From: a plasmid
Direction: 5' to 3' (one strand)
Assembly (NCBI RefSeq): GCF_055900595.2
Contig: NZ_PP320290.1
Length of the DNA stretch: 63,589 nucleotides
Positions within the stretch are counted from its first letter, which is position 1. Each line of letters starts with the position of its first letter. This document shows, piece after piece, positions 60,001 to 63,000 of this stretch. The position numbers are program-made.

Positions 60001-63000
60001 CAATGACTTATGAATTTTTAGGTTGGCAATTACGCAATGAGGCCCATTCTGAAGAAGAATTCGGTACATTGAGACATTTTATTAACGATAACGGTGTGCG
60101 CAATACATTTAATTTTGAACAAGCTGGCCAGATTCGGGGGGCGCATGAATAAGTCAAGAAACTCATTGGTCGCATTGTTGCCGCTATCGCTTTTCATTAC
60201 CCCGGCATATTCTGCAGATCTGGGAATTGATAGTATTACAGAGGCTGCTAAACGGTCTGGTGATTTGTCACGTCAGATGCTGCATACCGTTTTTGGTGAA
60301 GTGGTAAATAATCCTTTCAGTCCGTCAGGTGATGGGTTGTTAAATAACGTATTTTTCACAGTGAATGAGGTTATCGCCATATTAGCGCTGATTTATATGG
60401 CGATAATCAGTATTAAAAAACTACATCAGGCAGGGCAACTTGGGAAGTTTATAGAGGGTGATGGGAATAATGCCTTCAATTTTGTTAAAACAACATTCGG
60501 CTGGCTCCTTTTGGTTCCAACTGTTGTTGGATGGTCCGTTGCACAACTGCTCTTCCTGTGGTGTGGGTCAATCATAGGTGTAGGTTCTGCCAATGTTATT
60601 GCAGATAAAACAGCGTCGGAACTAGCGAGTGGCAAAGCTGTTTATATAACGCCAGTTATGCCAGAAATGGCTTCTGTGGCTAAAGGAATGTTCGAAATGA
60701 ACTTGTGCGCTCTTGGTGTCAATCAAGGGTTAGCTCAGATGGAGGCTTCAGGCCAACATTATGAAAGTAATAGCCAGATGAAGTTTAATACTGGTGATTC
60801 TAGTTACTCAATTTCAGTTGACAATGGTTCTGCTGTTTGTGGGACTGTTAAATTACCACAAAAACCTACAGGTTGGACTTCGGTATTCTCCAGTGGTTAC
60901 GCTGATTCTGTTTATGCAGTTCAACAGCAGGCTACAGACTCGCTTTGGAGTAAGATGAAGAATACAGCAGAGCAATTTAACTCTGCTTATATGTCTAAAA
61001 TGCGTTCCGGAGATGGGCAGCTGCCTGACGTTGAAACTGCAATTCAGACAGCAGCAAGAGATTACCAACAACAAGTACAGCAAGCTGCAGACAATGCTGC
61101 CGGAAGCAATGATATGCTCCAGAAAATGGAGTCGGATATAAAGGAAAAAGGCTGGCTATATCTTGGTATTTATTATCATACCCTGGCAACTGCTAACACT
61201 GAGCTGAAGGACGTTGCTAATCTGAAACCTATTGTATCAGGGATAAGTGGTGATGGTGATGTAGGTTCTACGGACTATTATAAAGGTCTGTTCCAGGCAT
61301 ATCATTCACAACTGAAAAACAGTACCTACACTCCCCCTTTAGGTACTGCTGATAATGCTTTAGCTCAGAACATTGACAATAAAGGCATCGAAGAAGCGGC
61401 AAAAAGTGGTGATGCAGATTCGTTGATTACCAAAATTTTCAACTTTAATGTTACTTCATGGCTTGCCACTAGAAACTACGGCACTGGCGATGGATACAGC
61501 GATGTAACGAATCCCTTGTTGAAAATGAAAGCCATTGGTGATTACACGATGTTTACTGCTGAGAGTGGTCTAGCTGCTTGGGGAGCTGTTAATGTCGCAA
61601 TGAGTGTTGCAGATGGTAATAACGCTGCTGGAATGGGGGCGGGATTACTTAATTTCTTCACTTCAGGTAAGGATATTATTAAGGGTGTAATTAAAACTGC
61701 GGCTCCGATCGTATACATGATTTTAGTCGCTCTGTTCTGTATAGGGTTAACGCTTTCAATTTGGCTTCCATTTGTGCCATTTATCTATTGGTTTGTCGCA
61801 ATGGCGGATTGGTTAGTTACTTTGCTGACTGGTATCGTTGCATCTTCATTGTGGGCCGCTACCCATATTAACATTGGCCAAACTAATGAGGACCGGTCAA
61901 CGTATGGATATATTTTCCTGATAGATGTGATGATTCGACCACTGTTGATGGTAATGGGGTTCATTTTTGCATCATTGGCCATTGTGGCTCTTGGCACCGC
62001 GCTTAACTATATTTTCAAAACAGCAATGGAAAATGTACAGGCAGATTCAACAACTGGCCTTTGGTCAATGATAGGTATCCTTTTTGTCTATGCAAGGATG
62101 TGTACAGGTATGGTCGCTAGGGTATTTGCATTACCTGCAAGGATGCCTAACTACGTCATCAGCTGGATTGGTAACAAGCATAACGATTCAATTCTTGGTG
62201 ATATGCAGAATCATGTTCACGACCTGTTTGCTGCATTTGGTCGTGGAGCTAAAAATACAGGTGGACGTCCTTCTGGGCCGAAGAACTTCAACCCAACCAA
62301 TACGGTTGATAAAGACAAAGATGGTATAGCGGGGGCGTGATATGAAAGGATATTCGTATACTGTTGTCGATAACAACATGGCTAAATCAAAAGGTGTTGG
62401 CTACTATCTGTCACGCCTGTCTGTAGCCATAAGTATAGTTATTTTAACAATAAGTCTTCCGTTGACTGTATATTCTGGCTTTCTTACTTTAGGTGGAAGC
62501 CTGGCATTGGCGTGGTTTGTTGCTCTACTTGTTTTCGATGCCATGCTGATCACATATGTTGTACGCCAGGTAAAAAGTAAGGGAGTCAAAAAGGTCGTTG
62601 CAGGCATGAGAGTTTATGGATGCTTTAATCCATCGGCTAAAGAGGAACAATACATGCCGGCTCAGAAAACATATTTTGGTATAGATATGGACTCCGGTGT
62701 TGTTGGTATTGCTGCCCTTTATGCTGTACAGGCCTCTATTAAGCAAAAGAGAATTTTGTTTGAGGCCGAGACAATTGAGTCTTGGGAGTATACTGATAGT
62801 AAACTTGTCGTAAATATTCGGAACCGACATGTGCCTACTGTTGAAATAATCTTGCTCAATGCCGGCCTAGCATATCGCCAGCTGGAAATGTTAACCAGGA
62901 TGCATGAGCAACATAAAAAATACAGGGGTGAAAAATATCTCCAGTGGCGAAAGACTATGCTTGATGAAGGTTGGATGCTACCACGAACGTATTGATGTTT

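Follow-up and report, generated by a model that had tools for sequence, protein, structure and literature searches.

In the IncI plasmids R64 and R621a, ExcA is described as recognising an internal and a C-terminal segment of TraY, respectively (Sakuma 2013, as cited in PMC12365149). Deletion of traY abolishes the transfer of both R64 and pCTX-M3, and the IncM homologues have been described in the same study (PMC6112013). For pOXA-48, the exclusion index fell from ~490 to 2 when excA was deleted, and pExcA restored exclusion in trans; without excA on solid medium, the copy number of pOXA-48 rose ~10-fold and its transfer increased, which means that the exclusion system also restrains plasmid copy number and self-transfer (PMC12365149). 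IncL and IncM plasmids differ in exactly three genes, namely traX, traY, and excA, and excA is the target that separates IncL from IncM in replicon typing (Carattoli 2015, PMC4416936). Consistent with this division, pOXA-48 and pCTX-M3 are stated not to exclude each other (PMC12365149, citing earlier work). A relative of TraY with solved chains is Legionella DotA, which has a signal peptide followed by TM1 and TM2 and, jointly with IcmX, builds a central, pentameric protochannel that lengthens on target-cell contact (PMC12501162).

Here we compare with these systems the traY-excA locus of a complete 63,589-bp pOXA-48-type IncL plasmid, hereafter the window. The initial annotation of this DNA had proposed that a polytopic membrane protein of ~730 aa and a membrane protein of 217 aa form a TraY/ExcA-type entry-exclusion pair at the end of the transfer operon, with central variable regions that would define the exclusion group.

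Location and organization of traY and excA

Compared position by position, the window corresponds to the 63,589-bp circle of NZ_CP077782.1 (pCDI231-63.6) rotated by 12 bases; the sole difference is a stretch of 3,264 bp that is inverted between the two inverted IS10A copies flanking blaOXA-48 (Tn1999.2). The 3.1-kb traY-excA region is 100% identical in hundreds of 63.6-kb plasmids from Klebsiella, Enterobacter, and Escherichia, which are typed as IncL/M, MOBP, and MPF_I in PLSDB, and DNA at least 99% identical to it occurs in 649 PLSDB plasmids. This conservation, along with a full-length match of the larger product to TIGR04346, indicates that the two open reading frames (orfs) are real genes and not chance orfs. 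Their products are 731 and 217 aa long, and both are membrane proteins by hydropathy, as had been proposed. The GenBank entry LC746219 names the genes of this region traX, traY, and excA. The features of the locus are listed in Table 1.

Table 1. Features of the traX-traY-excA region (coordinates refer to the window)
Feature	Coordinates	Strand	Description
traX	59556..60152	+	198 aa, two TM segments (hydropathy); NF033887 conj_TraX, E 4e-18
traY	60145..62340	+	731 aa; DotA/TraY family polytopic inner-membrane protein (predicted); named traY in LC746219
TraY signal peptide, aa 1-23	60145..60213	+	MNKSRNSLVALLPLSLFITPAYS, then predicted cleavage before AD; read from sequence
TraY internal variable segment, aa 401-525	61345..61719	+	End of hydrophilic domain and start of first C-terminal hydrophobic helix; candidate specificity determinant
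TraY C-terminal variable segment, aa 701-725	62245..62319	+	Hydrophilic tail
excA	62342..62995	+	217 aa; entry-exclusion protein acting in recipient; named excA in LC746219
ExcA hairpin of two TM helices, aa 19-50 and 56-77	62396..62572	+	Predicted by hydropathy and AF2 model; ~5-residue loop
ExcA C-terminal PH/PTB-like domain, ~aa 95-210	62624..62971	+	Predicted; seven strands, then C-terminal helices
Intrinsic terminator closing the tra operon	63007..63036	+	AAACCGCCTGAAAAGGCGGTTT, then TTTTCATG; 12 nt past excA stop

The genes are arranged in the order traU-traW-traX-traY-excA, followed by a terminator and then repC, which encodes the IncL/M replication regulator. A longer orf (60094-62340) that opens with GTG encloses traY, but the gene itself starts at the ATG at 60145. 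This codon is preceded by a GGGGGG Shine-Dalgarno run, lies in an 8-nt overlap with the traX stop, and agrees with how PGAP and GenBank annotate identical plasmids. The excA gene begins 1 nt after the traY stop codon (TGAtATG), and its G-rich Shine-Dalgarno sequence sits within the 3′ end of traY. In the terminator, a G+C-rich stem of 9 bp and the T-run behind it span 63007-63028. Given that this strong terminator and repC come directly after excA, excA comes last in the tra operon, where the initial annotation had placed it. A search for promoter-like sites found 12, compared with 10.2 expected from shuffled sequences; because this is no enrichment, we do not claim a separate excA promoter.

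Family and architecture of TraY

TraY matched TIGR04346 with 555.8 bits (cut-off 100), with residues 41-676 covering profile positions 1-656 of 656. Its score against the DotA equivalog model NF033886 was 134.6 bits, below the cut-off of 500. As judged by these profile scores, TraY is a member of the wider DotA/TraY family and not a DotA orthologue. A sequence search also matched it to the solved chains of Legionella DotA (9ngy/9nh0, E 2e-13), and the aligned parts of DotA are residues 25-169 (TM1/TM2) and 726-947 (C-terminal hydrophobic helices). In the predicted layout of TraY, the signal peptide is followed by two TM segments in the N-terminal part, ~350 aa of hydrophilic domain, and a cluster of C-terminal hydrophobic helices; by hydropathy, hydrophobic segments fall at residues 68-91, 118-153, 511-569, 588-625, and 645-663. 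The gene lies in an MPF_I/type IVB transfer operon beside traW and traX; the match of TraX to NF033887 listed in Table 1 falls below the cut-off of that model. Searches of Pfam with TraY and ExcA gave no match, and a sequence search of the PDB with ExcA and TraW found no solved relative.

Relationship of ExcA to the IncI-type ExcA proteins

The initial annotation had likened both proteins to those of R64. Alignment with the R64 reference sequence (NC_005014) bore this out for TraY, with 38% identity to its R64 counterpart across 719 aa (E 1e-165); for ExcA the likeness was weak, 25% over 72 aa in a pairwise comparison and 21% in a global alignment, and here the homology emerged through profiles. 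A tblastn search of plasmids with ExcA matched only IncL and IncM types and none of IncI, so profile methods were needed to reach the latter; a word-indexed protein search likewise returned only six close relatives. We therefore built a profile from five IncL/M-type ExcA sequences and searched it against 1.84 billion representative proteins. It found 19 proteins, including P0022 (E 1.5e-4), which is itself 38% identical to R64 ExcA (E 1e-53). In the opposite direction, the IncI1 ExcA model NF033891 matched ExcA with 38.1 bits (E 1e-9), aligning residues 55-194 with profile positions 51-187 of 210; since this score lies below the cut-off of 100, ExcA is not filed as an IncI1-type protein but only as a distant homologue.

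An alignment of 16 sequences that spans both types contains six invariant residues, P97, Y111, G113, D115, G119, and L155, in addition to the start methionine. ExcA also has the other traits of this superfamily, namely its size (217 aa, compared with 220 in R64 and 204 in R621a), a TM hairpin joined to a globular domain, and a gene directly 3′ of traY. Linked by profile searches in both directions, ExcA is thus, at the level of sequence, a distant but real homologue of the IncI-type ExcA proteins, and the R64-like arrangement that the initial annotation had recognised holds for both proteins and for the order of their genes, as R64 also carries traW-traX-traY-excA.

Predicted structure and topology of ExcA

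The AlphaFold2 model of ExcA had a pLDDT of 83 and a pTM of 0.74, with an input alignment of only 16 sequences. It consists of a helical hairpin, a seven-stranded beta domain (residues 102-170), and capping helices (residues 174-209); the PH-like superfold, which takes in PH, PTB, and FERM-F3 domains, is defined by a seven-stranded beta-sandwich with a C-terminal helix cap, and the model has both. Fold matches of the model found by Foldseek were weak (E 2e-3 and above). The predicted PH/PTB-like domain contains the family-invariant residues P97, Y111, G113, D115, and G119. A full-text literature search found no paper that joins entry exclusion with pleckstrin.

ExcA has neither a signal peptide nor a lipobox. 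The hairpin is flanked on both sides by K/R-rich stretches, with K2, K15, and K17 before it and R74, K77, K79, K82, K83, and R89 after it. By the positive-inside rule, this pattern points to an N-in/C-in orientation with the PH-like domain facing the cytoplasm; read from this charge distribution, the domain is probably on the cytoplasmic side. Short linear peptides are typical ligands of PTB and F3 domains, and binding of this type by the PH-like domain modelled here would suit the short variable segments of TraY described below.

IncL and IncM plasmids differ by a replaced traX-traY-excA block

The window and the IncM plasmid L004 share 98-100% DNA identity from traU through traW. Some 27 nt into traX, the first of the genes that differ, the identity collapses to 35-85%, with values of 35-70% at the step in traX, and it recovers only inside repC. 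The 5′ mosaic breakpoint therefore lies near position 59582. The synonymous divergence (dS) between IncL and IncM is 0.04-0.08 in traU and traW, and it is saturated in traX, traY, and excA. Accelerated divergence of the block in situ was rejected, because synonymous sites within the block are saturated, whereas those just outside it differ by only 4-8%. What separates IncL from IncM is a traX-traY-excA block that was replaced between sharp boundaries; IncM carries a different block and therefore does not exclude IncL.

Two further IncL/M-like backbones were found through relatives of ExcA. One is a Salmonella Give contig (L010), and the other is represented by metagenome-assembly contigs (L007-L009) that encode the ExcA relative P0004, a protein that is also recorded at NCBI from Erwinia amylovora. 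Compared with IncL, TraY is 97.4% identical in L010 and 89.5% in L007, and TraW is 97.3% and 91.0% identical, respectively. The TraY of IncM is ~78% identical to those of IncL, L010, and L007 alike. Given that TraY tracks the backbone in both outgroups and that IncM TraY is equally far from all three, the pattern would be accounted for if the IncM lineage had taken up a foreign cassette once. The comparison thus suggests that IncM, and not IncL, received the cassette; this is the most parsimonious polarity with two outgroups only. The opposite direction of import has been suggested in the discussion of PMC12365149. GC and GC3 gave no sign of which lineage carries the foreign cassette, the block being A+T-rich in all lineages.

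Variable segments of TraY and evolution of ExcA

We then compared TraY in bins of 25 aa between IncL and IncM and between R64 and R621a. The IncL and IncM proteins are 79% identical overall, and the identity falls to 56% at residues 401-425, 32-48% at 476-525, and 52% at 701-725. On the same coordinates, the lowest bins of the R64/R621a pair are 401-450 (35-40%), 476-525 (52-64%), and 701-725 (30%). Four of the five most variable bins are common to both plasmid pairs (permutation p 0.0008), and the bin identities of the two pairs are correlated (Spearman rho 0.51, p 0.005); the variable bins of the IncL/L007 pair are uncorrelated with those of R64/R621a (rho 0.02). The variable bins are also poorly conserved across the family, with an identity between IncL and R64 of 4% at residues 476-500, so relaxed constraint is a partial alternative explanation and the segments may be weakly constrained loops.

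The central variable regions expected by the initial annotation were thus approximately right for TraY, in which one segment (residues 401-525) lies past the middle and a second one is in the tail (701-725), and wrong for ExcA. The IncL and IncM ExcA proteins are 36% identical and divergent over their whole length, and their centre (residues 101-160) is the best conserved part. Between IncL and L010, the dN/dS was 0.13 for ExcA and 0.15 for TraX; it was 0.023 for TraY, and TraY, TraU, and TraW ranged from 0.02 to 0.05, which means that ExcA and TraX evolve three to six times as fast at non-synonymous sites as these three proteins. Whole-gene dN/dS (0.13 in ExcA) gave no sign of positive selection, only of weaker constraint. 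By analogy with R64 and R621a, TraY would be the target of ExcA in IncL plasmids as well, and the specificity probably resides in residues 401-525 and 701-725 of TraY, matched to the fast-evolving ExcA.

Discussion

We are highly confident that the IncL plasmid pOXA-48 has its entry-exclusion pair in traY and excA. The proposal of the initial annotation that the 217-aa protein acts in exclusion agrees with the published exclusion indices of wild-type pOXA-48 and its excA mutant (490 and 2), the latter complemented (PMC12365149). The finding is correct and, since the function of excA has already been published, it is already known. In the mechanism that we propose, TraY is the DotA-type component of the type IVB (MPF_I) conjugation machine, required in the donor for transfer, and, by analogy with Legionella DotA, may form the central channel with TraW, which is encoded upstream. 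ExcA is made by every plasmid-bearing cell and anchored in the inner membrane by its predicted N-terminal helical hairpin; on meeting a donor of the same plasmid type, it would recognise the cognate TraY, and DNA entry would be blocked ~500-fold.

Two other explanations were weighed against this mechanism. The 217-aa orf might be a generic hypothetical membrane protein, with exclusion provided by another gene, or it might act in surface exclusion, by destabilising mating pairs, rather than at entry. RefSeq/PGAP does label the orf as "hypothetical protein", it is without a Pfam match, and the NF033891 model, whose match is below the cut-off, is named "surface exclusion protein". Set against these points are the deletion and complementation results obtained with pOXA-48 (PMC12365149), the homology to IncI ExcA found in both directions, and the features of the protein itself, which has no signal peptide or lipobox; its TM hairpin is characteristic of entry-exclusion factors in the inner membrane and sets it apart from TraT and Sfx, which are outer-membrane lipoproteins. 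We regard this explanation as very improbable.

Somewhat less remote, though still improbable, is that ExcA excludes but, in IncL/M plasmids, has a target in place of TraY or besides it, which could be the small two-TM protein TraX. The traX gene lies inside the divergent block, its part in exclusion is noted as open by PMC12365149, and across the IncL-type relatives L010 and L007 the identity of TraX to IncL (85/63%) tracks that of ExcA (84/65%) and not that of TraY (97/90%); the dN/dS values of TraX and ExcA between IncL and L010 (0.15 and 0.13) are likewise close to each other and far from that of TraY (0.023). However, although R64 and R621a fall into different exclusion groups, their TraX proteins share 95.9% identity, compared with 86.8% for TraY and 53.5% for ExcA, which argues against TraX as the specificity determinant. 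Moreover, Sakuma et al. mapped specificity to segments of TraY, according to citing papers that include PMC12365149, and traX may fall within the block merely through the position of the recombination breakpoint.

Our analysis adds modestly to what is known: the agreement of the TraY hot spots between two plasmid families, the predicted PH/PTB-like fold of ExcA with its probable cytoplasmic location, and the suggested polarity of the cassette exchange are small, testable leads. Read jointly, they would make ExcA an inner-membrane-tethered, cytoplasm-facing PH/PTB-like domain that stops DNA from entering when it captures a short, plasmid-specific linear segment of the donor TraY (residues 401-525 and/or 701-725) in the manner of PTB and FERM-F3 domains and, separately, would have the IncM lineage import a foreign traX-traY-excA cassette. 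We put this combination forward tentatively and think it rather unlikely to hold as a whole. If the capture of a TraY peptide by ExcA were true, part of a DotA-like type IVB channel would cross the inner membrane of the recipient during mating. The plasmid pOXA-48 is the main vehicle of the OXA-48 carbapenemase, and its exclusion system decides which related plasmids may enter the cells that carry it.

Comparison with known systems

The locus is identical to that of pOXA-48 (JN626286-type), with no substantive difference in the traY-excA region. The IncM plasmids (pCTX-M3, R69, and pEL60) have the same gene order and sizes, and their TraW and TraU are 100% and 99% identical to those of IncL at the amino acid level, whereas TraY, TraX, and ExcA are only 79%, 59%, and 36% identical, with saturated dS. 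IncM thereby counts as an exclusion group of its own (PMC12365149, citing earlier work).

Beyond this group, TraY shares with Legionella DotA the family TIGR04346 and an arrangement in which a signal peptide is followed by two TM segments, an extended domain, and hydrophobic helices; it differs in its length (731 aa compared with 1,048 aa), in its shorter extended domain, and in that the system of TraY moves DNA between bacteria whereas DotA serves to deliver effectors into eukaryotic cells. To our knowledge, DotA has no exclusion partner. The TraG/TraS system of F and the TraG/Eex system of SXT/R391 resemble the present one in that a polytopic type IV secretion protein of the donor is recognised, through a variable segment, by a small inner-membrane protein of the recipient that an adjacent gene encodes, and the interacting regions of TraS/TraG and Eex/TraG are reported to be cytoplasmic, as would be the case for the ExcA domain. 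However, the proteins are not related to those of pOXA-48: TraG resembles VirB6, no similarity of TraS or Eex to ExcA was detected, and the secretion systems are of class MPF_F rather than MPF_I.

The likeness is closer to R64 and R621a, which share the order traW-traX-traY-excA, an ExcA of nearly the same length (220 aa in R64) with an N-terminal TM hairpin and an F-P...Y-G-D...G motif, and hypervariability of the same segments of TraY. The two arrangements differ in that traY and excA are separated by ~70 bp in R64, where other genes follow excA, whereas here the gap is 1 nt and excA is followed by the terminator and the replicon; in addition, traX is conserved in the IncI pair (96%), whereas in the IncL/IncM pair it belongs to the variable block.

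Results

The region of the traX-traY-excA cassette (window 59556–63200) was compared with L004, an IncM plasmid, L007, an IncL/M-like metagenome-assembly contig, and L010, an IncL/M-like Salmonella Give contig. TraY of two outgroup plasmids was IncL-type, and its identity followed backbone identity; the IncM TraY was ~78% identical to each IncL-type TraY compared (IncL and the two outgroups). Because outgroup TraY tracks the backbone and IncM TraY is equally distant from all of them, the alignments suggest that a foreign traX-traY-excA cassette entered IncM, not pOXA-48.

Our alignments gave IncL/IncM identities of 36% for ExcA, 79% for TraY, and 59% for TraX, and the published values are 35%, 59%, and 75%, respectively (Carattoli, 2015; PMC4416936); the latter figures for TraX and TraY therefore look swapped. 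The same study labels TraX a 'presumptive relaxase'; TraX is 198 aa long and has two TM segments, and the annotated relaxase lies at a different place (record 40549–42528). An 18-aa stretch (54 nt) is missing from TraX of IncL and L010 and is present in that of IncM and L007; the IncL/L010 lineage is thus marked by a common deletion.

ExcA forms a very small family: just 19 representatives at 50% clustering turned up among 1.84 billion proteins. At least two other variants of IncL-like exclusion exist: in L010–L011 and L007–L009, ExcA is 84% and 65% identical to pOXA-48 ExcA, respectively. On its 3′ side (repC and downstream), the IncL/IncM mosaic ends gradually, not at a sharp boundary. The repC dS is high (about 0.9) in all pairwise comparisons, even between IncL and the otherwise close L010; hence the replication-control region diversifies independently of the exclusion cassette.

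Natural disruptions were found in the PLSDB records NZ_CP068324.1 and NZ_CP068831.1, in the equivalents of window 60145–62995. Some pOXA-48 derivatives (H1) carry an IS3-family element within traY; in others (H72; also the truncated proteins P0005 and P0006), excA is cut to its first 116 codons. Such field variants should have lost transfer or exclusion.

In the whole-plasmid comparison, the sole difference from NZ_CP077782.1 is an exact 3,264-bp inversion (window 9405–12668). The segment contains IS1B, blaOXA-48, and lysR and is flanked by a pair of inverted IS10A copies belonging to Tn1999.2; presumably it flipped via recombination between IS copies. Elsewhere, a DGQHR-domain protein gene (window about 30197–32256) is interrupted by IS1B, a typical trait of the 63.6-kb pOXA-48 variant.

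Coordinates of the plasmid features
Feature	Window	Record	Remarks
blaOXA-48	10941–11738		minus strand
IS1B in DGQHR-domain gene	about 30514–31211	30502–31199	
Relaxase	about 40561–42540	40549–42528	annotated separately from traX
traX	59556–60152		
18-aa TraX deletion site	about 59625		traX codon about 24
traY	60145–62340		
repC	63076–63306		

Discussion

The 2025 study of pOXA-48 excA proposed in its discussion that the cassette was transferred in the opposite direction (PMC12365149), and our reading of IncM as the recipient conflicts with that proposal.
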